Below the pieces are notes generated by a model. The model made no database searches. It was given only the letters and a program-made list of their open reading frames with translations, and was not told the DNA's origin. A stretch of 64,000 bases of DNA from a phage. Shown in pieces: positions 9,314 to 60,226 of the stretch (position 1 is its first letter; every line of letters begins with the position of its first letter). Both the position numbers and the translations under genes were made by a program. The stretch is taken from the sequence record PV874203.1; one strand, written 5' to 3'.

Positions 9314-9322
9314 TATACATTA
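9314..9322 (-). promoter_or_regulatory. TAATGTATA motif (putative phage promoter element) upstream of the SSB-like gene
   Basis: Minus-strand TTATAATGTATATTA about 60 nt upstream of the start at 9253; same 9-mer recurs in gene orientation at 16338-16346 and 60218-60226. Confidence 0.35.
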
Positions 9323-9687
9323 TAACTTTTGTAAGATAAGTATCATTTTATTGGTAGTAGATACTCACTAATGGTAATGTATATAAGGTAGAGTTAGAGA
9401 ATAACTCTTGCACGGGACTGACGACGATAAGGCGCAGACGACAATCTCTCATAAGTTTGTAAGAAATTGAGAGACTACCGGAAGGGCAGGAGCCACCTGC
9501 GAGATAAAAATAGAGAATTAAGGAATCCTTGATTTAGGTTGTAGGGACTCCTAGGGACTTTGATTCTCTATTTAAAAGAATATTAATTACTTACTACCTA
9601 AATAATTAACTAGCTTACTTAAACCAAATTCAAGAATAATAGATAAAAAGATTATTCCTAAGAAAGCTAAGAAGTAAAGGATATAAG

Positions 9688-9852
9688 TTACCATTCAAGT
9701 AAACCTTTAAAATTAGATTTTTCTACTATTCTCTGATAATGAAGATTAGAATCAGCTTGTTTCTTTAACATCTCATTATACCTATCTCTGATAGAGTCTT
9801 TATAAACTACAGGTTCTTTAAATAATGAGATCTTGTTCTTTTCTTCTTTCAT
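9688..9852 (-). CDS. Hypothetical small protein
   Basis: Track ORF 9688..9936 trimmed to an internal Met to avoid overlap with the phosphoesterase gene. Confidence 0.3.
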   Translation of the reverse strand: MKEEKNKISLFKEPVVYKDSIRDRYNEMLKKQADSNLHYQRIVEKSNFKGLLEW

Positions 9853-10321
9853 CGAAAACCTTCCTAATCTCTTGCAGAGAAACAGCTTTATAATTAATTT
9901 GCTCCATTGATGTACAGAAATATCTCCAATCATCAATTACATGGTTATGAGTATGAGCATAAATATTAAACTTCCCTCTCATCTCATCAGAGTGAATAGG
10001 AATATGAGTTACCCAAAACTCTTTATATTTAAAGTCACCAGAGATTCTACGGAAGACTTTCATCATATCAGGGAGAAGTTCTAATCTGTCATGATTTCCT
10101 AAGACCAGATGCTTCTCTCCTCTAACTTCAGCGATGATATCAAGGGCATACTTTTCAAACACCCAATCACCTGTAAAGAAAACTTTATCACGTTTGGTTA
10201 CGTGGTCAAAAGCAGCCAGAATTGCTTTGTCATGCTCTTCAATGTTTTTAAATTGCTTACGAAAACTACAGATGTTGCGATGGCCTAAGTGACCATCTCC
10301 TGCAAAATAAACTTCAGCCAT
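9818..10321 (-). CDS. Calcineurin-like metallophosphoesterase (Ser/Thr phosphatase-like)
   Basis: Motifs GDGHLGH, GDWVFE, LGNHD and HTH-H match the metallophosphatase signature. Confidence 0.7.
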   Translation of the reverse strand: MAEVYFAGDGHLGHRNICSFRKQFKNIEEHDKAILAAFDHVTKRDKVFFTGDWVFEKYALDIIAEVRGEKHLVLGNHDRLELLPDMMKVFRRISGDFKYKEFWVTHIPIHSDEMRGKFNIYAHTHNHVIDDWRYFCTSMEQINYKAVSLQEIRKVFDERRKEQDLII

Positions 10322-10330
10322 AAAGACCTC

Positions 10331-10546
10331 TTAAATCAAGCATCCATCACAGGTTAAGTCACCTAATAGGGACAGGGAGAGTAATCTGGATTGTTCATCG
10401 CTGTACAGTTGATCAATCTCTTCTTTGAGTTTTGCCAATTCCATAAAATTAATAAGCTGTCCATGTTCTAGACAGTCTGTTTTCAATATGAATAAAACAT
10501 CAGCGTCTTTTGAATCTTCACTTGAGTATTTATCAATGTATTCCAT
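10331..10546 (-). CDS. Hypothetical protein
   Basis: 71-aa acidic ORF. Confidence 0.4.
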   Translation of the reverse strand: MEYIDKYSSEDSKDADVLFILKTDCLEHGQLINFMELAKLKEEIDQLYSDEQSRLLSLSLLGDLTCDGCLI

Positions 10547-10548
10547 TT

Positions 10549-10770
10549 TTATGCCACATCTCCTTGTTTATTGTTAATAACATCCAGTGCTGTATATGCT
10601 TTACCTGTTCCTAAGTATTCTAGAACTGGAGGACTTTTCTTCTCCTCAGCGACTACATAAGGTGTGATCTTTCCTTTCAGTACAGCCTGAGATGCTTTAG
10701 CGCTGTCTTCAGATGTGTGAACAGTAGTAAACCCTTTCTTTCCAATTCTATAAGTGTGAATCCAAATCAT
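10549..10770 (-). CDS. Hypothetical protein
   Basis: 73-aa ORF. Confidence 0.4.
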   Translation of the reverse strand: MIWIHTYRIGKKGFTTVHTSEDSAKASQAVLKGKITPYVVAEEKKSPPVLEYLGTGKAYTALDVINNKQGDVA

Positions 10771-10782
10771 TTAATTTCCTTA

Positions 10783-11193
10783 TTAACGTATAACCAGAGG
10801 CTCTTCAGAGTACACAGGAGCGGCTATTTCTACAGGAGGTGCTGCCCTAAGGTCATTAAGTCTTACACCCTTCAGCATACCATCTAGGTGGTCCTTTTTG
10901 GGGATTCCAACAGGGAAATCGTCAATCCAGATATCTACAAAGAAACCTAACTGTCGACAAACCTCATCCTTCTGCACACCATTACAAAAGATGATAGGAA
11001 TTTGCAAACACTCTGCATCAATCTTAATGTCGTGATTATCATATCCATTAGGCTCTGCAAAGCGATAAGTTACAAAACGTACATCATAACCTTTAGCTTG
11101 CATTAATGTCACCACAGACCGCCACAGCTCCTTATCTGAGGTGTAAGTATCATCATAATCTAAACCGATATTCATGTCAAGTCCTTTAGACAA
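10783..11193 (-). CDS. Hypothetical protein, possible HAD-like phosphatase/nucleotidase
   Basis: N-terminal IGLDYDDT resembles HAD motif I (DxDxT); other motifs not confirmed. Confidence 0.4.
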   Translation of the reverse strand: MSKGLDMNIGLDYDDTYTSDKELWRSVVTLMQAKGYDVRFVTYRFAEPNGYDNHDIKIDAECLQIPIIFCNGVQKDEVCRQLGFFVDIWIDDFPVGIPKKDHLDGMLKGVRLNDLRAAPPVEIAAPVYSEEPLVIR

Positions 11194-11221
11194 GAAAAGC
11201 CGCCCTAAGGCAGCTTCTTAT

Positions 11222-11398
11222 TTAACTATTCACTTTAGCTTCAAGTGCTTCATTTTCGATACTCAAGTCAATCACTACGCCAGTAAGCTCAACGACTGCT
11301 TGGCGAAGGGCATCTTTACCCATAGAGTGTACTTGAGATAAGAAGAAAGCTTTACCTTCTTCAGTGGATAGGGTTTCTTTTAATTCAGAAGCAGTCAT
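11222..11398 (-). CDS. Hypothetical small protein (58 aa)
   Basis: Sub-threshold ORF (MTASELKETLSTEEGKAFF...) found by hand translation in an otherwise unexplained gap. Confidence 0.3.
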   Translation of the reverse strand: MTASELKETLSTEEGKAFFLSQVHSMGKDALRQAVVELTGVVIDLSIENEALEAKVNS

Positions 11399-11407
11399 TG
11401 ATATTCC

Positions 11408-11602
11408 TTATGTTATGTTATAAATTCGCATGATTGTACCACTATTGGCTTCAATAGCAGCAACCATTTGGTTTCGTTCTTCATCCGTGTAAACTAACAC
11501 ACTTCTAAACTCACCTGTTGCATCAGTATAAAGGATGTTGTATTTCGGAGGTGGCTTACGGTAGATACCTTCCATCATTCTTTCTCCTCTCGTTCTTTCC
11601 AC
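11408..11602 (-). CDS. Hypothetical protein
   Basis: 64-aa ORF. Confidence 0.4.
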   Translation of the reverse strand: MERTRGERMMEGIYRKPPPKYNILYTDATGEFRSVLVYTDEERNQMVAAIEANSGTIMRIYNIT

Positions 11603-11758
11603 AGTTCAGCAAGTTCTAAATAAAACTCAGCTTCATCAGGACGTCCTTGTTCATTACAGATGGCGCTCTGGCGATAACACCAATCCGATGGCATCTCTTC
11701 CACTTCAATCTCCTTGTTAAGAACCAATCAATAAGAATAGTTCATTCGTCTTATTTAT

Positions 11759-11953
11759 TCACTCTACCAATGCAGGTACTTCTATCCTTTTAACTGTGAA
11801 TGTTTTGTTTGGAAACTTTCGAACTAACTCTGCTGCTTTGGTTATTGCTAAGTTCTCTGTCTCAAAGATACACAGTTGACCATTTAATGCTACAAGAGTA
11901 GAGCCACCGCTGAAGACGGCCCAAGATTCATAATAACCACGAACACTCATCAC
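11759..11953 (-). CDS. Hypothetical protein
   Basis: 64-aa ORF. Confidence 0.4.
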   Translation of the reverse strand: MMSVRGYYESWAVFSGGSTLVALNGQLCIFETENLAITKAAELVRKFPNKTFTVKRIEVPALVE

Positions 11954-12315
11954 TCAACCTCAATATTATATAAAGATTTTAATGTATCTTTAACCCAAGA
12001 GATTCGTTTTTGGTTCTTATGATGTGCTCTGTTGTCCCTATCTCTGAAGTATTGATCACATCCAAAAGGATAAGTCTTGTCCAAGAATTTATCCTGAGTG
12101 AACATGTTTTTCATATCATCTATATCTAGATGTTTTGTGAAATAATAATACCTCTTATAACAACGGAAGTTGAAACATAATCCATGATCTTCGTTAAACC
12201 AAGGAGGGCACTCCTCTGTTTGAGTTATATGGTAGTATTGGAGGAGGAAGTCCTCCATCCCCCTCTCCTTGAATAAACACCTAAGTGTTCTGTAAACTAT
12301 ATTAGTTTCTTTCAT
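11950..12315 (-). CDS. Hypothetical Cys/His-rich protein
   Basis: Track ORF trimmed to its first ATG; several Cys/His residues. Confidence 0.45.
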   Translation of the reverse strand: MKETNIVYRTLRCLFKERGMEDFLLQYYHITQTEECPPWFNEDHGLCFNFRCYKRYYYFTKHLDIDDMKNMFTQDKFLDKTYPFGCDQYFRDRDNRAHHKNQKRISWVKDTLKSLYNIEVE

Positions 12316-12323
12316 CACCTACC

Positions 12324-12476
12324 TCAATGGGTATGCATCCAATTCAATCCAATCTGACAATCAGATGCCAGAGGACATTCCATGTTCAAATACTCACCAG
12401 CCTTCTTAACACAAAGCTCGGTGTGCTCTTTGAGTTTCTGTACATCGTTACGATTAGCTGAGAACTGACCCTCATC
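12324..12476 (-). CDS. DNA polymerase (family A, T7 gp5-like), exon 2: motif C (DE of HDE) and C-terminus
   Basis: Hand translation gives DEGQFSANRNDVQKL...MECPLASDCQIGLNWMHTH*, paralleling the T7 DNA polymerase C-terminus (HDE... PNWAICH) as I recall it. An in-frame stop sits immediately upstream. Confidence 0.7.
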   Translation of the reverse strand, partial: DEGQFSANRNDVQKLKEHTELCVKKAGEYLNMECPLASDCQIGLNWMHTH

Positions 12477-13083
12477 CATTTATGTTATTCCCAAATTACT
12501 TCGGGTATCGGACTATATCATAACAGCATAGCTAATTTGCTGTTGTTGGCGCTTCGAGGGTTTCCCTGTTAACCCCCTACTCCCGCAGGATAGTCTCTAC
12601 ACTTTCCACTTTCGAATCCATCTACAAGCGATTCCAAAGCTCACACCAAACCTTTCTGCAAGAGCAACACCAGTACATTCATTATTAAGCCAGAACTCTT
12701 TAGCAGCATCCTGTCTTTCTCTGTTTCTACCAGTATTTGATTCTATGGCATGTGCACTACCTTCTAAGATCTCTAGATGATCAGTGTTACAACATGCCCT
12801 ATTCTTGCATTTGTGGTTAACTTCGTAGCCGTCAGGAATGTTTCCAAACTTCTCTTCCATGACATACCTATGATACATGACCCATTTGCCATTTATCACT
12901 TTTCGAAAGTATCCATCTTTATTTAATTTGTGTGAGATAGGGATGATACATCCTGTGCTAGTTGTTTCTAGCACTAGATCTTTCTTAGCCATATCACCTC
13001 CTAATAGCTTAGCTCGGTATTGCCCTCAACTTAATGGTCGGGTTTCACCGAGTTCACCAACTTTTACATGCACAATGAAGTTT
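12477..13083 (-). mobile_element. Putative group I intron interrupting the DNA polymerase gene at motif C, carrying an HNH homing endonuclease ORF
   Basis: 607-nt insert between exon 1 ending ...VIDMH (codon CAU, so U precedes the 5' splice site) and exon 2 starting DE...; last insert nucleotide is G. Exon 1 frame runs into the insert for 9 codons then stops. Boundaries are plus or minus a few nt. Confidence 0.6.
12597..12992 (-). CDS. HNH homing endonuclease (insert-encoded)
   Basis: GYEVNHKCKNRACCNTDHLE motif (HNH_3); lies wholly inside the insert in the polymerase gene. Confidence 0.8.
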   Translation of the reverse strand: MAKKDLVLETTSTGCIIPISHKLNKDGYFRKVINGKWVMYHRYVMEEKFGNIPDGYEVNHKCKNRACCNTDHLEILEGSAHAIESNTGRNRERQDAAKEFWLNNECTGVALAERFGVSFGIACRWIRKWKV

Positions 13084-14775: not shown

Positions 14776-14791
14776 TTTATACTCCTTTAAA

Positions 14792-15214
14792 TTATTGGTA
14801 AAGTAAATCTGTAAATGCTTGGTTATCTTCTATCACATCTAACACGGTAGCTTCATAGCTGTAAGCCCTAACCGCCCCGTTAACAACTATCCGAGGAGTA
14901 GGTGGAGGTGGTGCATGGTTAGTCCTAGCTTCACGAGGTTGCTCTCGTACTAAATGAGCCACAACCCTTTGGTTAGCGACTTCTTCTCTTTCTCGGATAG
15001 CTCTCTGAATGTAAGCTAACTTCATACCCCAAGCTTCTTCAAACTCTTGAGGGTGCTTATCACTGATTACTACATACTGACGCTCAGGGATACCAGATCG
15101 AATCTCTGATAATAGCTCATGGAACAAATCCAGTTCATGTTCAGTGAGATTCATTTCAATATCATCCCACTTGAGAACTAAGAAACGGTTTTGATGTCTA
15201 GTCGGTAATGGCAT
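14792..15214 (-). CDS. Hypothetical protein
   Basis: 140-aa ORF upstream of the polymerase gene. Confidence 0.45.
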   Translation of the reverse strand: MPLPTRHQNRFLVLKWDDIEMNLTEHELDLFHELLSEIRSGIPERQYVVISDKHPQEFEEAWGMKLAYIQRAIREREEVANQRVVAHLVREQPREARTNHAPPPPTPRIVVNGAVRAYSYEATVLDVIEDNQAFTDLLYQ

Positions 15215-15371
15215 TCTACTCCACCTCTACTCTAACGTAAGTTCTCTCGCCCACATCATCTTTCCAGACCCATGCCTTGGCATCTTCTTCAGACTTAAAA
15301 ACTTTCACAACGATGTATCCACCTTCCCATTCATCACCGCTCTGTCCTACGTAAACATATTCTTTCATTAT

Positions 15372-15656: not shown

Positions 15657-15657
15657 A

Positions 15658-15977: not shown

Positions 15978-16301
15978 TTACGATGAGCTTAAAGCTCCTT
16001 TTCGCTTAGCAGCACCAGCTGCTTTTCCAGCTCGATTACCACTTTTGCCGCCGTTTGAACGGTTTGAGCTGACTGATTCAATACGTAAGTTGCTTGACGC
16101 ATTAGAGCCTCCAGACTTGACAGCTCGTTTGTGTCCAACATCTTTACCTCTGACAGCAGCTTTTCCATCGCGCTTTTCAACGATGCGACGTGCACGGTGG
16201 CGCTGAGCATCTCCGCTCTTGCTCCCAACGCCTGTCTCACCACGGGCAATTGCGGTACGTCTTTCTTGTGCATAATCTCTCTTTCCTACATGATCTGCCA
16301 T
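15978..16301 (-). CDS. Hypothetical basic Gly/Ser/Arg/Lys-rich protein (possible nucleic-acid-binding)
   Basis: ATG with AAGGAG 6 nt upstream and the TAATGTATA motif about 40 nt upstream. An alternative overlapping frame (15989..16273) exists. Confidence 0.4.
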   Translation of the reverse strand: MADHVGKRDYAQERRTAIARGETGVGSKSGDAQRHRARRIVEKRDGKAAVRGKDVGHKRAVKSGGSNASSNLRIESVSSNRSNGGKSGNRAGKAAGAAKRKGALSSS

Positions 16302-16337: not shown

Positions 16338-16346
16338 TATACATTA
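16338..16346 (-). promoter_or_regulatory. TAATGTATA motif (putative promoter element)
   Basis: Minus-strand CCATAATGTATACTCC about 40 nt upstream of the ATG at 16301. Confidence 0.35.
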
Positions 16347-19916: not shown

Positions 19917-20403
19917 TATATTCCCTCCAAGTTTGATTAAGTAGAGCTTTTGACATCACTTGCTGAGAGACACCAAAACGTCTTGCAAGGGCAGAGCCTC
20001 CAAACTCTTTATCTCGAGGGATATAGACTCTCCTACAGTACTCTACATCTTCTAGAGTAAGTTTAGACTGTGGATTGTCTTCTCCAAACCTCTGTACCAT
20101 CAGACCTAATGATGATGCATGTTGAGAGTTTTCTCGGTGGGTACACCATTCAAGATTATCTTTATGATTGTTAAGTTTATTGCCATCCTTATGGTTGACA
20201 CATGGAAGATTATCAGGGTTCGGTATGTACTTACTAGCAACCAGCCTGTGGACATAGAAATTCTTTAATCCTTCAGGAAAGTAAATAGTAACTCTGTAAT
20301 AGGCACCATTAGTGTGGAGGGTTAAAAACCTTCCACTCTTTATAGTAAATACTCTACCATCTTCTGTTACATCAATCTTCCCTTCCAATTCTTTTGGAAT
20401 CAC
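19909..20403 (-). CDS. HNH homing endonuclease
   Basis: YVHRLVASKYI...VNHKDGNKLNNHKDNLEWCTHRENSQH (HNH_3). Confidence 0.8.
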   Translation of the reverse strand: MIPKELEGKIDVTEDGRVFTIKSGRFLTLHTNGAYYRVTIYFPEGLKNFYVHRLVASKYIPNPDNLPCVNHKDGNKLNNHKDNLEWCTHRENSQHASSLGLMVQRFGEDNPQSKLTLEDVEYCRRVYIPRDKEFGGSALARRFGVSQQVMSKALLNQTWREYNA

Positions 20404-20726
20404 TTAGGGTCTTCTCCTTCTAACTCAGTAGAGTTTGCTACATTTCTTTCTAGATTGCTTAGAATTTGCTGGGTAATTACGATGCAGTTCTGTGGGTCTA
20501 CTGACTTAGAACGCCCCATTTCAGGGTCATACACCTTAACACGCTTAGCAGTTGAACCTGTGACCTGAAGAACCTTCAACAGATATCCCTGATTACCGAT
20601 AGACCAAGCAACAACATCACGATTCTTGATAAAGCGACCAAGCATATCACGATGATAAAACTGTTGCATCACCTTGGATTTTGTAATCTCTTCAGTGGGC
20701 GGGGCCACTTTACTCAAATCTAACAT
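20400..20726 (-). CDS. Hypothetical protein
   Basis: 108-aa ORF. Confidence 0.45.
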   Translation of the reverse strand: MLDLSKVAPPTEEITKSKVMQQFYHRDMLGRFIKNRDVVAWSIGNQGYLLKVLQVTGSTAKRVKVYDPEMGRSKSVDPQNCIVITQQILSNLERNVANSTELEGEDPK

Positions 20727-20798
20727 AACTCTCTCCTGTAAAATACAAATTCTTATTGTACTCTATATACATTTGAGAGTTATCATATCTACTACCAA

Positions 20799-36457: not shown

Positions 36458-36690
36458 TACTCACCTTTCTTGGCACGATCTTTGGCAGTTTTGCCAGTGC
36501 GGATACGATGGGAAACGTTAACCAGAGTGCCACCATCAACTACGGTAACACTCTTGTTTTTAGCCAGATCGAACACAGTTTTCTCCGTGCCACCCAAGCG
36601 AATTTGCTTAGGCTCACTGAAGGTTTGGGTTGATTTGGATTGGAACTGGAACGGTTGACGAATTGCATCGATTGCGCTTACTTTAGACAT
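36457..36690 (-). CDS. Hypothetical protein
   Basis: 77-aa ORF. Confidence 0.45.
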   Translation of the reverse strand: MSKVSAIDAIRQPFQFQSKSTQTFSEPKQIRLGGTEKTVFDLAKNKSVTVVDGGTLVNVSHRIRTGKTAKDRAKKGE

Positions 36691-36921
36691 AGGGGAAATT
36701 CCTTAAAAAGTTATGGCTGCGTAGAGGGAATTCCCTACGCAAATTGGGCCGCCCACAGAGAGGCGTCATAGTACTAAAAGGAGGAGAGAAGAGGGCTTAT
36801 TTAGCTACCTTTTTCTGTCCGTTTACGAACCAGATAATTGAACCGTCAGGCTGTCGTTGCCCGAAGCCTTTCTGGTTAATCATATCGTCATAAGAATATG
36901 CTTTGATTCTCATTTGTTTTC

Positions 36922-38245: not shown

Positions 38246-38503
38246 TTACTTAAAGATGAAATGTATAACTGCATCATATGCTTTAGACAGAAGCCAACCT
38301 ATCGGATAACAGACTCCTGCCAGTATTGAGATGGGCCATAACATAATTAAGATCACAACCATCATCTCATCAGGTTCAGAGCTGGTAGACCCTGTTGTAA
38401 TGACCCCTTTTAGTAGACCTTTCTTGTATAGCAGTTTCAGCACTAAAACAGAAAGGAATACTCCAATAAAGTAAACTGAGATAAAAATATCAAGTAAACC
38501 CAT
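38246..38503 (-). CDS. Hypothetical small membrane protein (holin-like topology, unproven)
   Basis: 85 aa with 2-3 hydrophobic helices. Confidence 0.4.
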   Translation of the reverse strand: MGLLDIFISVYFIGVFLSVLVLKLLYKKGLLKGVITTGSTSSEPDEMMVVILIMLWPISILAGVCYPIGWLLSKAYDAVIHFIFK

Positions 38504-39586: not shown

Positions 39587-39662
39587 TGGTGCACCCTACA
39601 GGACTCGAACCTGTAACCAACGACTTAGAAGGTCGCTGCTCTGTCCATTGAGCTAAGGGTGC
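39587..39662 (-). tRNA. tRNA-Arg (anticodon UCU), 76 nt with encoded CCA
   Basis: Hand-folded cloverleaf: acceptor GCACCCT/AGGGTGC, D-arm GCTC/GAGC, anticodon stem GCGAC/GTCGT with loop CTTCTAA, T-arm ACAGG/CCTGT with loop TTCGAGT, 3' ACCA. Confidence 0.8.
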
Positions 39663-44245: not shown

Positions 44246-44689
44246 CTATTTAACCCTTGCCTCTTTGATGGGGTCAATGTATTTCTCAACGCCCCACTTG
44301 TGTTTACTATCTGCATAGAAAACATCAGGAGCACACTGGCTTGTCTTAGGAAAAGCCTGCGGGTCTTTCGTGCTACCCTTAAACTTCTGTTTACCACGGG
44401 TGCGACCATTACAGAAGATTTCTAACTTCTTCTCCTCTTCTGTTTTAGCTCCCCCGCTCTTTAACAAAGAACGTTTATGATCAGCTAACAACAACGCATC
44501 AGCACGATGGACACGATGGCCTACACGTTTTGCCACACTAGAAGGGATATGAGATTCAGCCTCAGCTTTTGCAGCACGGCGTTTTAAACTGCGCTTACTA
44601 ATGTAATTGGTTGCCTTCGGCTTCCCTTTCTCCAGTTCAGAGATAGAAAAACAACGCCCGCCCTTCATGCTGATTTTAGATTTAGTCAC
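44246..44689 (-). CDS. Hypothetical basic protein
   Basis: 147-aa Lys/Arg-rich ORF. Confidence 0.45.
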   Translation of the reverse strand: MTKSKISMKGGRCFSISELEKGKPKATNYISKRSLKRRAAKAEAESHIPSSVAKRVGHRVHRADALLLADHKRSLLKSGGAKTEEEKKLEIFCNGRTRGKQKFKGSTKDPQAFPKTSQCAPDVFYADSKHKWGVEKYIDPIKEARVK

Positions 44690-46425: not shown

Positions 46426-47242
46426 CTTTCAATTGTAAGGGCACTATGCCCCGCTCTCTATGAGCTTGTTTAAGTCACTATTAACTTAACTATAACCACT
46501 CGTTGTTAAGTAGTTATAGGTAAGCGGGGCGGTCTTATCAGGAGTTAACCTTGCCGCCCCCTTATCCGTGATGTTTCATCTGGTACGCTTTAATTTTCCG
46601 CTATAAATAAAGCCGGATTGCGTAGCGATGATCAATCATCACAATAAGGCTATGCGTCCAACTCAATTTAATTACATTGCTGTAACCGTTGGCAATATCG
46701 TCTACTTTGCTTTCGCTCCCGCCTATCCTTTGTGCCAACTCCTAACCGCTAACCATCGCCCACTACGGGAGGTTATTGCGGAAAGAGATCATTGACCGCC
46801 TAATATTCCGGCGTTTTATATCTTTCGGCGGGTTTACTACATAACCCGACTATGTACTTCCGTCATAAGACGAATCTCAAGCCGTTCACATCGTAAACGT
46901 TCGCATTAAACCTTATTGTTAAATAGCAATTTGCCACTTTTTAACCACTCCCCGCCGCCCTCAATTGGGCGTTAATTCGTCGGACTTGTCTGCCCTGATT
47001 AGTTTCTTTCACTGTAGCACCGTGTTAGCGATGGCCGCCGCTACCCTTAACCGTGGGCGATTAGCTTAAACCTTTGCGTGTACTCAATGAATCCGCTTAT
47101 CAGTGGCGACTTTTCCAGTTAAGGGATTGTAAAACTGTTTACCCTGATGTTTTAGGGAGTTTTACGCCGTTTTATCTGGTATGCTGTCCGATGGTTATTA
47201 TCTTCCAGCATATTTAACCGATATATGGGAATGTTTAAATTG

Positions 47243-47868
47243 TTAAAGAGCGGTAAATCTGTCAGCGTGCTTTCTCACGCTACGCAACTGTTAGCCGTTG
47301 TTACGCTTTTCACTTAAGCGGTGATTTGCTTCAGTGATGCTCATTATGGACCATGATGTTTTTGCTGTCAACCGCTTTTTTAATCTTTTTCGTCGTTCCC
47401 GCTATTGGGAGGATATATCAACCCGCTTTATTGGGTTGAAGATTAAGCGATGAGGCTTAACCCATGATTCATATTGTTAAAGAGCGTTTAGCCTTTTATA
47501 GTGTCTGCTAATCACTGCATCATTAAAGGCTTACTTATTCATTAACGGGGCGCCTAATCCCGAACTACCCGCTGCACTATGTGCCACCTTTCCCGCGATA
47601 CGTTGATTTAGGAACTAGTTAACGTTGTTTTGTTAACTTGTGGTTAGTATGAACTACCTTAACCACGTTTGCAACCCTTTTTTATCATCTTCTTTTATTC
47701 TTTTCCCTTATCTCGCTTGAATCTATGCGAAAGGGCAAGATGATAAGTTTTTAAAGAGCGGGATGCTTTAAGTCATCGCTGACTATGCTCACTATATATC
47801 AGGCTATTTTCGGTGTCAATACTCTTTTTAAGAATATTTTCACTTTCTAGCCTGATTTTTAAAGAGCG
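47243..47868 (+). repeat. Four dispersed copies of TTAAAGAGCG(G) in an ORF-poor 1.7-kb region
   Basis: Copies at 47243, 47477, 47751 and 47859, in two subtypes (ATTGTTAAAGAGCG x2, TTTTTAAAGAGCGGG x2). Confidence 0.5.
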
Positions 47869-48204
47869 GGGCAATTTCTTGCCTTGTATGTTTTTCATCG
47901 TACCCGATGAATTGAAGTATACATTAATCAGTGAGGGATGCAATAGGGTAAAGCAAACTATTTTAAACTTTTTCACTATAGGGAAGATAAAGGAACGGGT
48001 GCGCGTGATACATCATAGAAAACGGCTTGTAAAGCGATATTTAGCGGCCTAAAACGCACTATAGCGAGCTAAAAGGGAGTAAGGTATACAATCACCTTAG
48101 AAACGATAAGAGCCTCACTAGGAGGCTTATAGGAAGGATTTAGAGCATTAGATAGATTATGACCATAGGCATGACTACGGCACAATATAGGAGAAAGATT
48201 AAGC

Positions 48205-51909: not shown

Positions 51910-51937
51910 GTTGTTGATAATGTAGAAGGAGTATAAA

Positions 51938-52411
51938 ATGTTTGGAGAAAACGGAGAACTCACGCCTGCACAGGTAGCTGAGATTACAGGAAGATTGCCC
52001 GGAGTAACGGAAGAACTTGAAAGCCGTGGTATGAACCCAAGCAATGGGAAGTTTCAAAAGGGAAATAAATTCGGACGACCCAGAGGTAGTAGAGGTAAAC
52101 TGACACAATTAATGTTGGACCGTGTTGCTGCAAGTCATTTGTCTCCTGATGAAGTGTTAATTCAAATTTACGAAGATCCTAATATTCCACCTGATCTTAG
52201 ATTCAAGGCTGCATCAAAAGTTGCAGATCTGGTATATCCTAAGGCGGCCTCTGTTGAAGTTAAGATTGAGGAAGAGAATGTAATCAACGAAGAATCATTG
52301 AATGCACAAATCAAGGACTTCTTGACTGGAGCACTTGGTATCGACGTTATGCCTCCAGAAGAAGACAACTCTGAGGACGCTGAAAAGGGGGAGGAAGCGG
52401 ACGAGAGTTAA
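51938..52411 (+). CDS. Putative terminase small subunit
   Basis: Immediately upstream of the large terminase; HTH-like LTPAQVAEITG, basic Gly-rich segment, acidic C-terminus. Assignment by position and composition. Confidence 0.4.
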   Translation: MFGENGELTPAQVAEITGRLPGVTEELESRGMNPSNGKFQKGNKFGRPRGSRGKLTQLMLDRVAASHLSPDEVLIQIYEDPNIPPDLRFKAASKVADLVYPKAASVEVKIEEENVINEESLNAQIKDFLTGALGIDVMPPEEDNSEDAEKGEEADES

Positions 52412-52529: not shown

Positions 52530-52736
52530 ATGTCATTAGATAAACAAATTTATGAAGCTCTAACTGGTAACAATCTTAGTGTAGAGGAAAAGAAAGCACT
52601 ATTGAATATGTTGAAAGAGCGTGACCAATGGAGGAAGTATAATAGGATTTTGTCTTTCAAGGCGTATGACTTCCAAAAGAAATTTTATGCAGCAGGATTG
52701 AAGCATCGCTTTAGGTTCTTGTGTGCGGCTAACCGT
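52530..52736 (+). CDS. Terminase large subunit (T7 gp19-like), exon 1, ending inside the Walker A motif
   Basis: GGAGG RBS, ATG; translation ends ...YDFQKKFYAAGLKHRFRFLCAANR then an in-frame TAA. Confidence 0.65.
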
Positions 52737-53558
52737 TAACTGTTATTCACCAAGATAACCAACACGAATCTGTCGCAGTATACAAAAGAGATTATCACCT
52801 AAGGCTTAGCTATGGTGGAGCGGTTTAAAAAGTGTGCTAATTGCTGGAAGGCTGTTACGAAAGTTATGCTAATCAGCAGCGAAGCTTAATGTGGGAAACC
52901 TATTAAGAACGTTCAACGACCAGAGATTATTCTCGTAGGGTAAAGTTACCCGAAACGCACACCCCAGAGTGGGATGATATGGTCTATTCTTTTCGGAAAC
53001 GTAAAGCAGGAGAAATTAAAAATATGTTTTTATATCACATCCGTCGTCCGGGTATGTCTTTAGAAGAGGGCTACATCGGAATCACGACAAACACTACAAA
53101 ACGTTTTGCTCAGCATCACAGAGACACTCGAAATAACAACCGACATAATAGGAACTGGCATCTCTATAACGCTCTTCGTAAATATGATGATATAGAGTTC
53201 GTTATCATAGAAGAAGGGGAAGATGAAGTAATTCGACAGAGAGAGTTTGAATTACGCTCGAAACCTAATATGGGTTGGAATCAAGCAGTAGGAGGTTCTC
53301 ATAATGGTGGCAACACTTGGAAAGGCAAACAACGACCTGAACACTCAGAGCTGATGAAGAAGATAGGTTTCCAGAAAGGTAATACCACTGGATCACATCA
53401 TCCAATCATGGCTGAAGGTCAAATATTTGAGAATAAACGTTTAGCGTCAGAAGCTCTTGGAATAAACCCTAAGACAATCTATAATAGATGCAAGAGAGGT
53501 GTTGATGGTTATAAATTTCTCCGGGATGACACTGTTACGGGTGCATCTGAATAAAGAG
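52737..53558 (+). mobile_element. Putative group I intron in the terminase large subunit gene, carrying a GIY-YIG homing endonuclease ORF
   Basis: About 822-nt insert splitting the P-loop: exon 1 ...AANR (last nt U) and exon 2 VGKSYSEA... give AANRVGKS (AxxxxGKS); insert ends in G. An alternative junction (52731/53550) is also rule-compatible. P1-P9 structure not verified. Confidence 0.55.
52979..53554 (+). CDS. GIY-YIG homing endonuclease (insert-encoded)
   Basis: N-terminal YHIRRPGMSLEEGYIGITTNTTKRFAQH matches the GIY-YIG core; basic C-terminal DNA-binding region. Confidence 0.75.
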   Translation: MVYSFRKRKAGEIKNMFLYHIRRPGMSLEEGYIGITTNTTKRFAQHHRDTRNNNRHNRNWHLYNALRKYDDIEFVIIEEGEDEVIRQREFELRSKPNMGWNQAVGGSHNGGNTWKGKQRPEHSELMKKIGFQKGNTTGSHHPIMAEGQIFENKRLASEALGINPKTIYNRCKRGVDGYKFLRDDTVTGASE

Positions 53559-54893
53559 GTTGGTAAATCTTACAGCGAGGCATACGAGTTTGCTTGTCAT
53601 GTCACAGGTCGCTACCCAACTTGGTGGACAGGATATAAATTTAAAAGACCTATCTTAGCATGGGCAGTTGGTATTACAGGGGATTCCACAAGGAAAGTAT
53701 TGCAAAAGGAATTGTTTGGTACACCTATCGGAAAGGATACAAATTTATTAGGGACAGGTGTCATTCCTCGTGATGCTATCGTCATTGATACGATAGAACG
53801 AGATGGTAACAAACTTCAAATCGTACAAATCAAACATCAAAATGAGAGAGGAGAATTTGACGGTTTAAGTACATTAGAATTCCGTTCAACCCAACAGGGT
53901 GAACACACATTGATGGGTGCAACAGTTGACTACATTTGGTTAGACGAAGAAGATCCATATGAGTCTATGGCTATATTCGCACAGTGCGTCACACGTACAC
54001 TCACAACTAAAGGTCTAGTTACAATTACAGCTACACCAGAGAACGGTTTAACTGAACTGGTAGATAAATTTATGAAAGGTGAAGGGGATGAGAACACAGG
54101 TTCTCTATATTTCCAGAATGCTTCTTGGTGGGATGCTCATGCAGACCTAGGTGGACACATCACTGACCAAGATATAAAAGATATGACTGAGGGTATTCCA
54201 GCGTGGCAATTAGAGATGCGTTCAAAAGGTATGCCATTGTTAGGAAGTGGTTTGATATATGATGTATCGGATGACACAATTAAATGTGAACCATTCGAAA
54301 TTCCTGATACGTGGAAACGTGTCTGTGCAATTGATATTGGTATTGATCACCCAACTGCTGCTGTTTGGACAGCTTACGATGCAAACACGGATACTATCTA
54401 TGTTTACGACTCATATAAAGAAGGTGGCTTTACTCCAGTGTATCATGCTCCAGCTATTAATGGTCGTGGTCAGTGGATTCCTGTCATCCTACCGCATGAT
54501 GCGGACAATACTGAGAAAGGTAGTGGTTCATCTGTTGCTCAATTCTATAAGAATGCAGGAGTTAACGTACAGAGTGAGACCTTCTACAACAAAATTGGAA
54601 TGGATGGTAAAAAGAACTTCTTTGTAGAACCGGGAATCACAGATATCCGAGAAAGAATGATGAGTGGACGCTTTAAAGTCTTTAACACAGCCGCTAACGC
54701 TAAGCTATTCGAAGAGAAAGCTAGATATCACCGTAAGGTTGGTAAGATTATTAAAGAACATGATGACTTAATGGATGCAATGCGTTATTCAGCGTGCTCT
54801 GTTACACATCGTGGTCGCTCTAAGCATGATGTTAGCTACGGAAGCGCTTCTTTGTATGAGGCAAACGTAAGCAGATGGAATCAGAGCTACTAA
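53559..54893 (+). CDS. Terminase large subunit (T7 gp19-like), exon 2: rest of ATPase domain and nuclease domain
   Basis: Begins VGKSYSEAYEF (completing Walker A), Walker B VDYIWLDEED. Track ORF starts at a GTG at 53499 inside the insert. Confidence 0.7.
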   Translation, partial: VGKSYSEAYEFACHVTGRYPTWWTGYKFKRPILAWAVGITGDSTRKVLQKELFGTPIGKDTNLLGTGVIPRDAIVIDTIERDGNKLQIVQIKHQNERGEFDGLSTLEFRSTQQGEHTLMGATVDYIWLDEEDPYESMAIFAQCVTRTLTTKGLVTITATPENGLTELVDKFMKGEGDENTGSLYFQNASWWDAHADLGGHITDQDIKDMTEGIPAWQLEMRSKGMPLLGSGLIYDVSDDTIKCEPFEIPDTWKRVCAIDIGIDHPTAAVWTAYDANTDTIYVYDSYKEGGFTPVYHAPAINGRGQWIPVILPHDADNTEKGSGSSVAQFYKNAGVNVQSETFYNKIGMDGKKNFFVEPGITDIRERMMSGRFKVFNTAANAKLFEEKARYHRKVGKIIKEHDDLMDAMRYSACSVTHRGRSKHDVSYGSASLYEANVSRWNQSY

Positions 54894-54954
54894 AGTAAGG
54901 GGGAGGTTTGTCCTCCCTTCTTTTATTTAAGCTATCAACCGAGGGAGAGAATAG

Positions 54955-57198: not shown

Positions 57199-57207
57199 GG
57201 ACGTCGA

Positions 57208-57444
57208 ATGAACATTAGGCATCAATTCAATAAAGAGCACGCCGCCGCTTTGGCGGCTCTCAATCTTAACGGCAGTCTTGACGCAGCATTAGAGGCATTG
57301 AAAGAAAGACTCATGACAGAGATAGTTCAAACTGAACCTCATGAGAATAAGAAACGCGAAGATTGTTATCAAAAGTATAAAATGGTGGGTAGCTTAAAAG
57401 AGGTCATAAAAGCTGCTATCAATAGTGCAGGAGATGTTTCATAA
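57208..57444 (+). CDS. Hypothetical protein
   Basis: 78-aa ORF between portal and scaffold. Confidence 0.45.
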   Translation: MNIRHQFNKEHAAALAALNLNGSLDAALEALKERLMTEIVQTEPHENKKREDCYQKYKMVGSLKEVIKAAINSAGDVS

Positions 57445-58529
57445 TGCCACAAGATAATTATATTGACCCGAACGATTTTAAATCTTTCCTCCAACTGGAT
57501 GACCTGAAAGGTTCTTTTAAAGAAGAGCTTGGTCGATTAGAATCTGAACAAGAACCAGAAGTGGACATTGACGATGAGTTCCCGGAACAAACCGGTGACG
57601 AATTCGACTTTGATACCGACCTTCTCGGTGAAAGCGATGTGCTTAAGTTCGAAGATGAAGATGGTTGGGAAGATCATGATGAGGAAGGCGAAGTCGAAGA
57701 AGATGAGGACGACTCTGATGAAGGTGCTGAAGACACTGAAGTAGAAGAGGAAGACTCAAGCGATGCAGGGTATGAAGATGATTCTGCTGACGGTGATGGT
57801 GAAGTCTTTGATGTAGACTACGAAACCGTTATCACCCTTCCTGATGGACGTGAGATGACTATTGAAGAACTCTCCAATGGCTATCTTACTGGTGCTGATA
57901 TGACAGAACGAGAAACAACTCTTCAGCGTCATATGGAAGCATTTGAGGAACGTGTAGTAGGTTTGAAGGATGTATTAGAATTAGCGTCTTTAGAAGCAGA
58001 CCGAGTAATTGAAGATTACAACGGATTTGATTGGGACAAGCTTGCAGTAGAAGATCCTCAAGCATATGTTGAAAACAAACGTTTCCTAGAGAAGTACACA
58101 GCTCGTCGTAACCAGCTTGAACAGGCTCAGGTCCGTATTAAGCAGGAAGCAGCAGCTAAAGAGCAGGAAGCTTTCCAAGCCAAGAGCATTGAATGTGTTA
58201 ATATTCTGAAACGTGAGATTCCAAATTGGGATGAAAACTTATATCAAAACTTAATGCAATACGCAATTGACTTAGGTGCTACTGAAGAAGAAGTATTGAA
58301 GGAAAACCGTCCGTCTATTTTCCTAGCTCTCCACAAAGCATACCAATTTGATAAAGGTAAGCAACAGGTGATGGCTAAGATTAAACGTCCCGGTGCTCCA
58401 CGCAAGGTTGTGAAGTCTGATGCTGCAAAGTCTCGTACTTCCAATAAGCCAGACAACGCTAAGGTTGCCAAGGCATTCGCAGAGGGTCGCGTTAGTCACG
58501 AAGACGCATTCAAATTCCTCGTAGATTAA
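57444..58529 (+). CDS. Scaffolding protein (putative)
   Basis: Highly acidic N-terminal half, helical C-terminal half, immediately upstream of the capsid gene. Confidence 0.55.
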   Translation: MPQDNYIDPNDFKSFLQLDDLKGSFKEELGRLESEQEPEVDIDDEFPEQTGDEFDFDTDLLGESDVLKFEDEDGWEDHDEEGEVEEDEDDSDEGAEDTEVEEEDSSDAGYEDDSADGDGEVFDVDYETVITLPDGREMTIEELSNGYLTGADMTERETTLQRHMEAFEERVVGLKDVLELASLEADRVIEDYNGFDWDKLAVEDPQAYVENKRFLEKYTARRNQLEQAQVRIKQEAAAKEQEAFQAKSIECVNILKREIPNWDENLYQNLMQYAIDLGATEEEVLKENRPSIFLALHKAYQFDKGKQQVMAKIKRPGAPRKVVKSDAAKSRTSNKPDNAKVAKAFAEGRVSHEDAFKFLVD

Positions 58530-58570
58530 TCGACAAATTAATTATTTAATAGTATAGGAGCTAACATAAC

Positions 58571-59629
58571 ATGGCTAATCCAACTTTATTTGTATCGTAT
58601 GACCAGAATGGTAAAAAACTTTCTTTTGCTAACTGGATTTCTGTTCTGTCCCCTCAGGATACCCCGTTCGTATCCATGACCGGTAAAGAGTCTATCAACC
58701 AGACTATCTTTAGCTGGCAGACCGATGCACTGGCAAGCGTTGACGCTAATAACGCACACATTGAAGGTTCTCGTGCGGTTGATGGTGAAATGCAACCTAC
58801 CGTAATCAAATCCAACGTTACTCAGATTCTGCGTAAGGTTGTTAAAGTTTCTGATACCGCTAACACCACCGCTAACTACGGTCGTGGTCGTGAACTGATG
58901 TACCAGCTGGAGAAGAAAGGTAAAGAGATCAAACGCGACCTCGAGAAAATTCTTCTGTCTGGTCAGGCTCGTACCGACGTTCTGGCTGACCAGTACCTGA
59001 CTAACTCTGCCGCTGATCCGACTCAGATTGGTAAGAACGACACCCATGCAGCTCGTAAGACTGGTGCATTCCAGTTCCTGTGTGCTCACGGCGGTCTGGC
59101 TGGTGGTGTTGTTGACAAAACCAAGAATGGTCCTGCTGATCCGGATACCGGTGCAGTAACTGTTAAGGTTGCACAGAACGCATCTAACCCGGCTACTAAC
59201 ATCGGCTTTGATGAAGCAGATATCTTTGATATGACTCTGCAACTGTATACCGCTGGTTCTGAAGCAGATATCATCATGATTAACCCGGCTCATGCTAAGA
59301 TCTTCGCTGGTCTGCAAGAAAATACTCAGGGTTCACGTAAGCGTATCTTTGAGAACACCAAGCAGTTCATCTACGAAGTTAACAGCATCACTGACCCGCT
59401 GGGCCAGAGCTACAAAATCATCGTTAACCGTTGGATGCCTACCGATGCAGTTTACTTCTTCCGTAGCGCTGACTGGACCCAGATGGTTCTGCGTGCTCCG
59501 AAACGTACTGAACTGGCGAAAGATGGTTCTTACGAGAAGTGGATGATTGAGATGGAAGTTGGTCTGCGTCACCGCAACCCGTATGCTTCCGGCGTTCTGT
59601 TCACTGCTGCGGGAAAGGCGGCGGCGTAA
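58571..59629 (+). CDS. Major capsid protein (putative), zero-frame product
   Basis: 352-aa protein after scaffold, followed by a terminator; assignment by synteny. Confidence 0.6.
   Translation: MANPTLFVSYDQNGKKLSFANWISVLSPQDTPFVSMTGKESINQTIFSWQTDALASVDANNAHIEGSRAVDGEMQPTVIKSNVTQILRKVVKVSDTANTTANYGRGRELMYQLEKKGKEIKRDLEKILLSGQARTDVLADQYLTNSAADPTQIGKNDTHAARKTGAFQFLCAHGGLAGGVVDKTKNGPADPDTGAVTVKVAQNASNPATNIGFDEADIFDMTLQLYTAGSEADIIMINPAHAKIFAGLQENTQGSRKRIFENTKQFIYEVNSITDPLGQSYKIIVNRWMPTDAVYFFRSADWTQMVLRAPKRTELAKDGSYEKWMIEMEVGLRHRNPYASGVLFTAAGKAAA
59611..59617 (+). other. Candidate -1 programmed ribosomal frameshift slippery heptamer G_GGA_AAG
   Basis: GGGAAAG lies 10 nt before the capsid stop; the -1 frame is open from here to 60156. 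Confidence 0.5.
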
Positions 59630-60156
59630 CAGTAGACAGTGTAACTGTTAGCCCTGCGTCTTTATCAAGTCTAGAGACAGGGGCTACTCGGCAGTTCACT
59701 GCAAGCGCGGAGAAAAGTGATGGTTCTACCGAAACAACTGGCTTTACTTGGTCAGTGACAGGAGGTGGTACTATCACTCAGTCGGGTTTGTATACTGCTC
59801 CGAGTGCGTCTCAATCCACTGATGTATCCATTACTGCAACTTTAGAAGGTGTTTCTGGTACAGCAACCATTTCTGAAATTGTTGATCCTACTCCTACTAT
59901 TGTAGCTAAAGGTCCAATTACTGGTAAGGTAGGCGGTTCTACTACAGCTTTCACTACAATGTTTACCGTTACCAATTCAGCTGCTTCTAACTATACTTTC
60001 GTAGTAACTCCTCCGGAAGCTGGTTCTGTAAGTGCTGCCGGTCTGCTGACCTTGGCTGATGCTGCTTCTGGTGCTGTAAGTGTTAAAGCCACCCACTCTA
60101 CGGTTTCGAGTGTTACGGCTACTTGTGAATTTACAGGTGTAACTCCAAAAGAGTAA
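59617..60156 (+). CDS. Capsid C-terminal extension in the -1 frame: Ig-like (BIG2-type) domains, probable decoration
   Basis: -1 frame reads GKGGGVTVDSVTVSPASLSSLETGATRQFTASAEKSDGS...TWSVTGGGTITQSG...; pattern resembles bacterial Ig-like domain 2. Track lists only 59755..60156. Confidence 0.5.
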   Translation, partial: GGGVTVDSVTVSPASLSSLETGATRQFTASAEKSDGSTETTGFTWSVTGGGTITQSGLYTAPSASQSTDVSITATLEGVSGTATISEIVDPTPTIVAKGPITGKVGGSTTAFTTMFTVTNSAASNYTFVVTPPEAGSVSAAGLLTLADAASGAVSVKATHSTVSSVTATCEFTGVTPKE

Positions 60157-60165
60157 AACTATAAA

Positions 60166-60190
60166 GGCTGCCTTCGGGTGGCCTTTTCTT
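60166..60190 (+). terminator. Rho-independent terminator after the capsid region
   Basis: Hairpin GGCTGCC-TTCG-GGTGGCC followed by TTTTCTT. Confidence 0.55.
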
Positions 60191-60217
60191 GTTTTAAGAC
60201 CTATACAAGCTAGTGTG

Positions 60218-60226
60218 TAATGTATA
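60218..60226 (+). promoter_or_regulatory. TAATGTATA motif (putative promoter element)
   Basis: GTGTAATGTATATTC 34-42 nt upstream of the ATG at 60260, followed by AAGGAGG. Confidence 0.35.

Follow-up and report, generated by a model that had tools for sequence, protein, structure and literature searches.

Results

The window encodes homologues of gp36 and gp79

The window, by which we mean the whole 64,000-nucleotide stretch of phage DNA analyzed here (record PV874203.1), belongs to a Kuravirus, a phiEco32-like coliphage, and encodes homologues of both gp36 and gp79 in the same stretch as the promoter sites described below. The gp36 homologue (7308-7952, -), a phage sigma factor and the predicted reader of the motif, agrees with phiEco32 gp36 at 210/214 residues (98% identity); its product matches chain F of PDB entry 9m7y (E = 2e-143) and gives a sub-threshold match to the Pfam Sigma70_r2 domain. 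The gp79 homologue at 26526-26774 (-) shares 100% identity (82/82) with the phiEco32 protein and matches chain G of the same entry (E = 1e-51). The function of gp79 is twofold: it is an inhibitor of the sigma-70 holoenzyme and an activator of the one containing gp36 (PMC12276001).

According to the account given in PMC8948821, which cites the primary work, the gp36 promoter element tAATGTAtA, with AATGTA centered at -11.5, was mapped experimentally in 2012, and six such promoters were mapped in phiEco32, in front of genes 6, 13, 26, 40, 58, and 68. In the same paper, phiEco32 transcripts begin 6-8 bp past the element, and its supplement gives the P6 element as TAATGTAgA and the P68 element as aAATGTATA. 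Recognition of a gp36 promoter was visualized by cryo-EM in 2025, revealing contacts of gp36 with -14A, -13A, -12T, -11G, -37G, and -34A, the last two made by its C-terminal domain and required for transcription (PMC12276001, PDB 9m7y). At phiEco32 P68, the gp36 holoenzyme transcribes in vitro, and gp79 stimulates this activity 3-fold (PMC12276001).

A 9-mer is enriched in the window and oriented toward genes

The initial annotation, made from the sequence alone, had drawn attention to a 9-mer, TAATGTATA, at 9314-9322 (-), 9375-9383 (+), 16338-16346 (-), and 60218-60226 (+). All four of these exact copies are correct, and a fifth, at 47918-47926 (-), had been overlooked. Measured against 100 dinucleotide-preserving shuffles of the window, the five copies compare with an expectation of 0.75 ± 0.80, and none of the 100 shuffles contained at least five. 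Matches with one mismatch are not enriched as a class in the window (26 versus 20.7 expected), but the published degenerate form [TA]AATGTA[TG]A occurs eight times, with six of the eight matches in intergenic DNA (binomial P = 2.9e-5, for an intergenic share of ≈10% of the window). Every gene-proximal copy is oriented toward its gene. The earlier observation of a recurrent, gene-oriented motif is thus borne out by enumeration.

Five published gp36 promoters lie at their expected places

P40 carries the exact TAATGTATA at 9314-9322 (-), a gp36-type -10-like element (-15 to -7) separated by 60 nt from the gene-40 homologue downstream (8507-9253, -) and with a predicted start site near 9307. It is the positional homologue of phiEco32 P40 at 36632 (-), and its 9-mer is exact in 20 of the 20 genomes examined. 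The copy in the window also overlaps a perfect TATAAT accompanied by a weak -35 (ATGATA, 16-nt spacer). The exact motif of P58, at 16338-16346 (-), is situated 36 nt upstream of the gene-58 homologue (15978-16301, -), in flanks near-identical to those of phiEco32 P58 at 42937 (-), a promoter that is included in the supplement of PMC8948821. P13, a late promoter homologous to phiEco32 P13 at 9101 (+), has the exact motif at 60218-60226 (+), 33 nt upstream of an adaptor-protein gene (60260-61012) whose product matches Pfam SU10_adaptor (E = 3.7e-29). These are the three gene-associated copies that the initial annotation had named, and all three are real; the distance of 35-60 nt it gave holds for the gaps of 60 and 36 nt from motif end to start codon, whereas the third, 33 nt, falls just below that range.

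Two further gene-proximal sites had escaped notice. At P68 (20766-20798, -), a -35-type element, TTGGTAGTAGATA (20786-20798), accompanies the element AAATGTATA (20766-20774), and the gene-68 homologue (20400-20726) begins 39 nt further on. At P6, TAATGTAGA occupies 51918-51926 (+) and is separated by 11 nt from the gene-6 homologue that follows (51938-52411); the flanks of this element are those of phiEco32 1677 (+) except for one base well upstream. The variants at individual promoters equal those in the published table (P6, ...AgA; P68, aAA...). In all, five of the six published promoters are where homology predicts them, with 11-60 nt between element and start codon; the sixth, P26, lies just beyond the left edge of the window, which starts at residue 140 of gp26.

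The initial annotation had further proposed that the motif marks a promoter class distinct from sigma-70 and read by the sigma factor at 7308-7952, a proposal supported by the identity of that protein to gp36, by the published gp36 element, and by the homologous sites. The layout of these promoters calls for a refinement, as gp36 also contacts the -35 region through -37G and -34A (PMC12276001), so gp36 promoters are not strictly single-element. An A at -34 is present at P40, P58, P68, P6, P13, and the copy at 9375 (+); a G at -37 is present at P40, P68, P6, and the 9375 copy, whereas P58 and P13 have an A there, suggesting that the -35 requirement may differ among promoters. Because the signal had already been published for the phiEco32-type sigma factor, the motif is a correct rediscovery of the gp36 promoter element and not a new one.

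The copy at 47918 probably overlaps a sigma-70 early promoter by chance

The fifth copy of TAATGTATA belongs to a different setting (47916-47926, -). Its last six bases, together with the CT that follows, take in TATACT (47921-47916), the -10 hexamer in a conserved early promoter of the sigma-70 type (TTGCAT-N17-TATACT) with an A/T-rich upstream tract. In an alignment of seven phages, GTATACT is invariant and the TAAT half varies (GGC, AGC, AGT), and the complete 9-mer is present in the window and IME267 alone. phiEco32 has no motif copy at the equivalent position, and the bases at -37 and -34 are C and T, not G and A. We conclude that this copy is probably a chance overlap with the early promoter. 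The earlier statement that the motif does not follow a sigma-70 layout agrees with a scan of 9100-10000, in which the count of sigma-70 hexamer pairs (TTGACA/TATAAT) spaced 16-18 bp apart was not above that in shuffles; the copy at 47918 is an exception.

An orphan site at 9375 has the sequence of a complete gp36 promoter

The copy at 9375-9383 (+) is an exact TAATGTATA that faces away from P40. The initial annotation had seen no obvious ORF downstream of it, and we likewise found none; we therefore call it the orphan. At 9351-9363 (+), corresponding to -39 to -27, it is preceded by TTGGTAGTAGATA, a -35-type element with the same sequence and spacing as the upstream region of the validated P68, supplying both the -37G and the -34A that the gp36 C-terminal domain contacts. 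The 12-mer TGGTAGTAGATA has only two exact occurrences in the window. That GGTAGT at -37 to -32 is common to the orphan and P68 strengthens the case for a bipartite gp36 promoter. By its sequence, the site at 9375 (+) is a seventh complete gp36 promoter of the P68 type; that it fires in vivo we infer. It is absent from the published list of six promoters, as that list is given in later papers citing the primary mapping. Promoter features annotated in SU7 and 4E8 are predicted sigma-70-type promoters on the minus strand and leave the orphan unmarked.

The orphan has an equivalent in phiEco32 at 36704 (+), and across 20 of 20 genomes in two genera, both its 9-mer and the GGTAGTA of its -35 element are kept exactly. 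The spacer separating it from P40, by comparison, has a mean identity of 62% and a length of 52, 62-63, or 181-183 nt. Because the spacing of the inverted pair varies in this way, from 52 to 183 nt, we rejected the idea that P40 and the orphan form an operator. Among 2.9 million viral contigs, the combined -35/-10 pattern was found in Kuravirus-type contigs only, at two places in each complete genome matched, apart from one genome with a single match. A metagenome scan with the orphan pattern returned 21 matches, five of them in Kuravirus-type contigs that carry the orphan and 16 unrelated and due to chance; the five contigs show new mosaic combinations and add little covariation.

A conserved, ORF-free stretch lies downstream of the orphan

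Taking the start as the motif end plus 7, the orphan would give rise to a predicted non-coding transcript of ≈187 nt (9390-9576, +). This stretch consists of a 5' hairpin (9390-9408), an exchangeable middle module that exists in two versions, the sequence GCAGG-N5-CCTGC, and a long hairpin. Among 16 phages, mean pairwise identity is 94% for this ORF-free DNA, some 175-190 nt in length, compared with 87% for gene-40 coding DNA and ≈50% beyond the hairpin. Small ORFs in the intergenic region, on either strand, reach only 20-37 amino acids, and none has a convincing start or is conserved between the window and phiEco32. A CDS annotated across both promoters in 4E8 was set aside; none of the other records that we checked annotates it, and it runs across the spacer whose length varies between 52 and 183 nt. 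Rfam 15, searched at a permissive E ≤ 1, gave no match for window positions 9250-9700 or for phiEco32 36570-36900, which together represent both module versions.

In the first hairpin, two pairs show compensatory changes, and an alternation of G-C and G-U is compatible with pairing only on the plus strand. Folding z-scores for the orphan region are -3.4 and -2.1. The region is mostly invariant, so its invariant part offers no covariation support, and thermodynamic folding gives the plus strand no advantage, the minus strand folding equally well or better in the window. The stem of the long conserved hairpin (9506-9576) is invariant in the 16 phages, and because TTTTTATCT follows it when read on the minus strand, the hairpin is likely the minus-strand terminator of the upstream operon. 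It likely also provides a weak 3' end for a plus-strand orphan transcript. The long hairpin was not among the calls of a simple terminator scan, which also detected no clear plus-strand terminator downstream. Within the window, complementarity of the orphan RNA in trans amounted to three 12-mer matches versus about 1.3 expected, which is not notable. Literature on phiEco32 in combination with antisense RNA, replication origin, or boxA yielded nothing relevant, and a search for Kuravirus RNA-seq found no phage transcriptome.

Discussion

We consider it highly probable that gp36 reads the middle and late promoters of this phiEco32-type phage through TAATGTATA as their -10-like element (-15 to -7), a function carried over from phiEco32. 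The biochemistry and structures behind this assignment come from phiEco32; what the present genome contributes is sequence identity of gp36 and gp79, one-to-one correspondence of sites, conservation, and the common -35 element. On this model, host sigma-70 RNA polymerase would transcribe the early genes after infection. The gp36 homologue would then bind the host core polymerase and direct it to the motif sites, its N-terminal domain reading A-14, A-13, T-12, and G-11, with the DNA opened at the T-12/G-11 junction, and its sigma4-like C-terminal domain contacting G-37 and A-34; transcription would start about 7 bp past the motif. gp79 would displace region 4 of sigma-70 and stabilize the gp36 open complex, so that transcription shifts away from host and early genes and toward the middle and late ones. 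The functional set in the window would comprise P40 (9314, -), P58 (16338, -), P68 (20766, -), P6 (51918, +), and P13 (60218, +), and the orphan would add transcription of its conserved ORF-free ≈187 nt, which would run antisense to the upstream operon across its terminator and 3' end.

The system shares with that of phiEco32 the 9-bp element, the per-promoter variants, the downstream genes, the sigma factor (98%), an identical gp79, and identical or near-identical flanks at P58, P68, P6, and P13. For the five gene-proximal sites there is no difference of substance; the copy at 47918 (-), by contrast, occurs in the window and not in phiEco32. In T4, gp55 acts with gp33 and the sliding clamp to read the late promoters, which have TATAAATA at -10. 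The likeness lies in a minimal phage sigma that reads an extended -10-type element, with a small cofactor replacing sigma region 4 on the beta flap; gp36 differs in retaining a sigma4-like C-terminal domain that contacts -37 and -34. gp79, moreover, enters the RNA exit channel and involves no clamp coupling (PMC12276001). The late promoters of Salmonella phage 7-11, GTAAtg-N16-aCTA, are read by the sigma factor gp47, a phage-encoded protein that likewise steers the core polymerase of the host to promoters whose genome positions are equivalent (PMC8948821). However, the 7-11 sigma factor is unrelated (≈15% identity), its consensus is different and openly bipartite, and 7-11 has neither a gp79 homologue nor a middle class (PMC8948821).

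What the orphan does is a more speculative matter. The proposal as a whole is that Kuraviruses and Suseptimaviruses possess a seventh, apparently undescribed gp36 promoter that faces away from P40, has a P68-type -35, and transcribes a conserved ORF-free element of ≈165-190 nt that comes in two exchangeable module versions, the product being either a phage RNA, small or antisense, that targets the upstream operon at its 3' end or else a primer or activator of replication; from the sequence evidence, we regard this as falling slightly short of probable.

Of the specific roles, we tentatively suggest that the orphan makes a discrete non-coding or antisense RNA of ≈165-190 nt that ends at the long hairpin, similar to lambda OOP. 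Over its whole length, such an RNA would be complementary to the mRNA of the upstream minus-strand operon at its terminator and 3' end, and from middle times onward, it could destabilize the upstream mRNAs or block read-through into gene 40. This possibility is consistent with a promoter that is complete and conserved, with a region that lacks an ORF and is nonetheless better conserved than the adjoining coding DNA, with the folding z-scores, with the overlap of the transcript and the minus-strand terminator hairpin, and with a 5' hairpin that starts at about +1 and has compensatory changes and G-U pairs valid only on the plus strand. On the other hand, the plus-strand tail after the long hairpin is U-poor (UAUUUAAAAG), so termination may be poor; the RNA has no Rfam family and no significant trans-complementarity elsewhere in the window, and the minus strand folds as well or better there. 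The parallel with lambda OOP extends to a transcript that runs toward a neighboring operon and overlaps it at the 3' end.

We think it unlikely that the orphan instead binds the gp36 holoenzyme without a product-related role, whether as the relic of an inverted duplication, as a recruiting or decoy site by P40, or as a source of convergent transcription that does no more than shield P40 from read-through. It does form an inverted pair with P40, only 52-63 nt apart in most genomes, and long antisense transcription from the plus strand would collide head-on with the minus-strand operon. Yet in some genomes the two are 181-183 nt apart with both elements intact, which argues that no fixed geometry is required, and the -35 of the orphan matches that of P68 and not that of P40, indicating that it is not a simple inverted duplicate of P40. 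This explanation also leaves the strong conservation of the downstream 174 nt unaccounted for.

In T7, the gene-less promoters phiOL and phiOR have a proposed role in replication, as do the middle-promoter origins of T4. By analogy, the orphan could be a replication promoter whose transcript, or whose transcription, opens or primes an origin, an idea we hold to be quite improbable. Like phiOL, phiOR, and lambda OOP, the orphan is a phage-specific promoter with no downstream ORF, a likeness that serves as analogy only and involves no sequence relationship; it would belong to the middle class, like P68, judging from its -35 element, it is located among replication genes (DNA polymerase, exonuclease, primase/helicase), the DNA beyond the hairpin is AT-rich, and we found no published origin for this phage group. 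However, no iterons or repeats were noticed by eye in the sequence, the GC-skew profile merely tracks the direction of transcription, and the DNA past the hairpin is poorly conserved, at about 50%.

That the motif arises by chance in intergenic DNA rich in A and T, or that its copies mark operators or ordinary sigma-70 promoters, is scarcely credible: the overlaps of the P40 copy with TATAAT and of the 47918 copy with a sigma-70 -10 hexamer, and the inverted repeat formed by the P40 and orphan copies, are outweighed by the excess of copies (5 versus 0.75), by complete conservation of the P40 and orphan 9-mers inside a variable spacer, whose changing length argues against a dimeric operator, by the lack of a TATAAT overlap at phiEco32 P40, and by published biochemistry showing gp36 dependence, in which in vitro transcription with the gp36 holoenzyme already contradicts such a reading.

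The motif class itself brings nothing new to biology. The result has two uses: it shows that a reader working from sequence alone recovered an experimentally validated class of phage promoters and named the right sigma factor, and it leaves five gp36 promoters of this genome cleanly annotated. phiEco32-type phages are a model for sigma replacement and are under development for therapy. If the orphan fires, these phages would make a conserved non-coding transcript controlled by the phage sigma factor, which, if true, would give this phage group its first regulatory RNA or else a candidate origin element.

The 9-mer is the promoter element of a gp36-type sigma factor

At the DNA level the window is ~92% identical to many Kuravirus phages of Escherichia, with genomes of ~77 kb, and it shares its gene order with the type member, phiEco32. 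The ORF at 7308–7952 (minus strand), which the initial annotation had taken to encode a phage sigma factor, specifies a protein identical at 210 of 214 positions to phiEco32 gp36 and matches PDB 9m7y chain F with E = 2e-143. Pfam returns only a sub-threshold Sigma70_r2 match for this protein, consistent with gp36 having been described as a remote homologue of sigma factors. A homologue of gp79, the sigma-70 inhibitor and co-activator of the gp36 holoenzyme, is encoded at 26526–26774 (minus strand); it is identical to phiEco32 gp79 at 82 of 82 positions and matches 9m7y chain G. Elsewhere, a tRNA-Arg (anticodon TCT; 39587–39662, minus strand) occupies the same relative position as the annotated tRNA-Arg of phiEco32. 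The terminase large subunit homologue (52530–54893, plus strand) is interrupted by a full-length group I intron (52734–53006, plus strand; Rfam RF00028, 74.6 bits) and, after it, a GIY-YIG ORF (52979–53554, plus strand; Pfam E = 1.1e-5), whereas its phiEco32 equivalent, gene 7 (2240–3781), is uninterrupted.

Enumeration of the 9-mer TAATGTATA with its orientation relative to genes revealed five exact copies in the 64-kb window, at 9314 (−), 9375 (+), 16338 (−), 47918 (−), and 60218 (+), against an expectation of 0.75 ± 0.80; none of 100 dinucleotide-preserving shuffles reached five. Four of these had been located before, with exact coordinates, but the copy at 47918 had been overlooked. The gene-proximal copies are all oriented toward a start codon at a distance of 11 to 60 nt. 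Taken together, one-mismatch matches show no enrichment (26 in the window versus 20.7 expected). The published degenerate form, [TA]AATGTA[TG]A, has eight matches in the window, six of them intergenic (P = 2.9e-5, based on an intergenic share of ~10%). A AAATGTATA match at 38259–38267 (+) lies within coding DNA, on the strand opposite to the local genes and with T at −37, and is probably due to chance.

As described in PMC8948821, Pavlova et al. 2012 experimentally mapped six promoters of the gp36 holoenzyme, upstream of phiEco32 genes 6, 13, 26, 40, 58, and 68 (here P6 to P68, after the downstream gene). By that account, tAATGTAtA is their single conserved element, and transcription starts 6 to 8 bp downstream. 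The supplement of PMC8948821 gives the elements as TAATGTAgA for P6, TAATGTATA for P13, P26, P40, and P58, and aAATGTATA for P68, and the promoter list in PMC4331800 is identical. A 2025 cryo-EM study places AATGTA at −14 to −9, where A-14, A-13, T-12, and G-11 are read by the N-terminal domain of gp36; its sigma4-like C-terminal domain contacts G-37 and A-34 (PMC12276001). The motif class is thus already known in detail, and the proposal that it is read by the phage sigma factor, although right, had been anticipated in print.

In phiEco32, the motif occurs at 1677 (+; P6), 9101 (+; P13), 26014 (+; P26), 36632 (−; P40), 42937 (−; P58), and 46862 (−; P68). The window counterparts are TAATGTATA at 9314 (−; P40), 16338 (−; P58), and 60218 (+; P13), AAATGTATA at 20766 (−; P68), and TAATGTAGA at 51918 (+; P6), with flanks at P58, P68, P6, and P13 identical or nearly so to those of phiEco32. 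P26 is absent because the gp26 homologue is itself cut by the edge of the window, which starts at its residue 140. At P6 (51918–51940, +), as in phiEco32, a Shine-Dalgarno-like AGGAG follows the promoter element but precedes the predicted start site (TAATGTAGAaggagtAtaaaATG), so that the predicted transcript would have just ~4 nt of leader and would lack a ribosome-binding site for gene 6. At P40 (9319–9346, −), the element contributes its first four bases to a perfect sigma-70 −10 hexamer (tTATAATg) with ATGATA 16 bp upstream, an overlap that phiEco32 P40 lacks; in the window phage, either holoenzyme may be able to use P40.

The fifth copy lies within an early-promoter region

In a seven-phage alignment at 47918 (−), GTATACT is invariant and includes TATACT, the −10 hexamer of a conserved early promoter of the sigma-70 type; this promoter also has the −35 hexamer TTGCAT 17 bp upstream and an A/T-rich upstream tract. 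The "TAAT" half of the copy falls in the variable spacer, where other phages carry GGC, AGC, or AGT, and only the window and IME267 have the complete 9-mer. At the equivalent place, phiEco32 has no motif copy, even with one mismatch allowed. The copy has C at −37 and T at −34 rather than the G and A contacts, and we regard it as a lineage-specific coincidence.

The surrounding region (46440–48200, −; unannotated 72786–74731 in phiEco32) comprises ~1.4 to 1.8 kb without a convincing ORF and several strong sigma-70-type promoters, including TTGACA-N17-TATAGT near 47818–47790 (−) and TTGACA-N17-TAATGA near 47370–47340 (−), so that long untranslated early transcripts are predicted. Here CGCTCTTTAA(A/C)AA occurs four times versus 0.38 expected (47240–47252, 47474–47486, 47748–47760, and 47856–47868, all −), each time downstream of a sigma-70-type promoter. 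An additional copy lies at 44455–44467 (+), and phiEco32 has four between genes 124 and 125, in a gap that carries no annotation. This sequence agrees with boxA of the E. coli rrn leader (TGCTCTTTAACAA) at all but one of 13 positions; we checked that an E. coli genome has ~7 copies of TGCTCTTTAACAA, located ~95 nt upstream of 16S rRNA. The resemblance suggests that early transcripts may recruit Nus-factor antitermination; no publication connecting phiEco32 with boxA came up in a literature search.

A conserved copy diverges from P40

The copy at 9375–9383 (+), an orphan facing away from P40, is conserved and apparently unlisted; nothing else in the analysis extends past the published accounts consulted. 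Its phiEco32 counterpart is an outward-facing copy at 36704 (+). P40 and the orphan are both exact TAATGTATA in 20 of 20 Kuravirus and Suseptimavirus genomes, while the spacer between them measures 52, 62 to 63, or 181 to 183 nt and has a mean identity of 62%. From −39 to −27 the orphan carries TTGGTAGTAGATA, with the sequence and spacing found in the validated promoter P68, supplying the G-37 and A-34 contact positions. The exact 12-mer of this −35 element occurs in the window only at the orphan and P68, and GGTAGTA is retained at the orphan in all 20 genomes. Among 2.9 million viral contigs, the combined −35/−10 pattern is confined to Kuravirus-type contigs, with two sites in each of four complete genomes and a single match in one further genome and one 14-kb contig.

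Three more distant contigs, with a gene-40 protein 67 to 69% identical, lack both TAATGTATA and the divergent orphan. Upstream of gene 40, they have GGTACT at −37 to −32 and then [T/A]AATGGATA at −15 to −7; in L010–L012 (82–90 kb), the latter is found at locus positions ~1076–1090, ~110 nt upstream of the gene-40 homologue. This arrangement supports a bipartite GGTA(C/G)T-N16-WAATGKATA layout in the gp36-type sigma family and suggests that L010–L012 may use a related sigma with specificity changed at one base.

The orphan precedes a conserved, structured element

The initial annotation had noted no obvious ORF downstream of the orphan, and we likewise found no credible ORF there and no match in Rfam. 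Mean pairwise identity across this region is 94% (16 phages); the initial 240 nt of the gene-40 coding DNA reach 87%, and the DNA past a long hairpin ~50%. A short hairpin starts at the predicted +1; two of its base pairs show compensatory double changes, and its G-C/G-U alternation would be a C-A mismatch on the opposite strand. The middle of the element (9409–9490, +, and equivalents) has two unrelated forms, both conserved among the phages that carry them: type A (GCAGGCTTGTATATTGGGCAAT...) in phiEco32 and 15 others, and type B (GCACGGGACTGACGACGATAAGG...) in the window, ECBP2, SDYTW1, and one uncultivated genome. In mosaics, such as ev_rybdy3 and metagenome contig L043, the hairpin-1 type of one group is joined to the middle module of the other.

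A long invariant hairpin makes up the 3′ part. Its plus-strand U-tail is weak; read on the minus strand, the hairpin precedes TTTTTATCT and therefore most likely serves as terminator for the upstream operon. Its loop (9535–9560) contains the tandem repeat AGGGACT-CCT-AGGGACT (minus strand AGTCCCTA-GG-AGTCCCTA), and TH34, Paul, NC-B, and EK010 lack one G from both units (AGGACT-CCT-AGGACT), a coordinated loss that hints at a possible paired or protein-binding constraint.

We rank first the reading that the orphan yields a short antisense or non-coding RNA, ahead of roles without a product, as a decoy, relic, or insulator; replication priming comes third. Folding energies do not distinguish the strands, covariation is limited to the first hairpin because most of the element is invariant, no trans-targets of the RNA stand out, and literature searches turned up no Kuravirus transcriptome, so it is from its sequence that we consider the orphan quite likely to be an active promoter. 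Beyond the known motif class, these phages would thus have one conserved, apparently unlisted promoter with a putative non-coding product.
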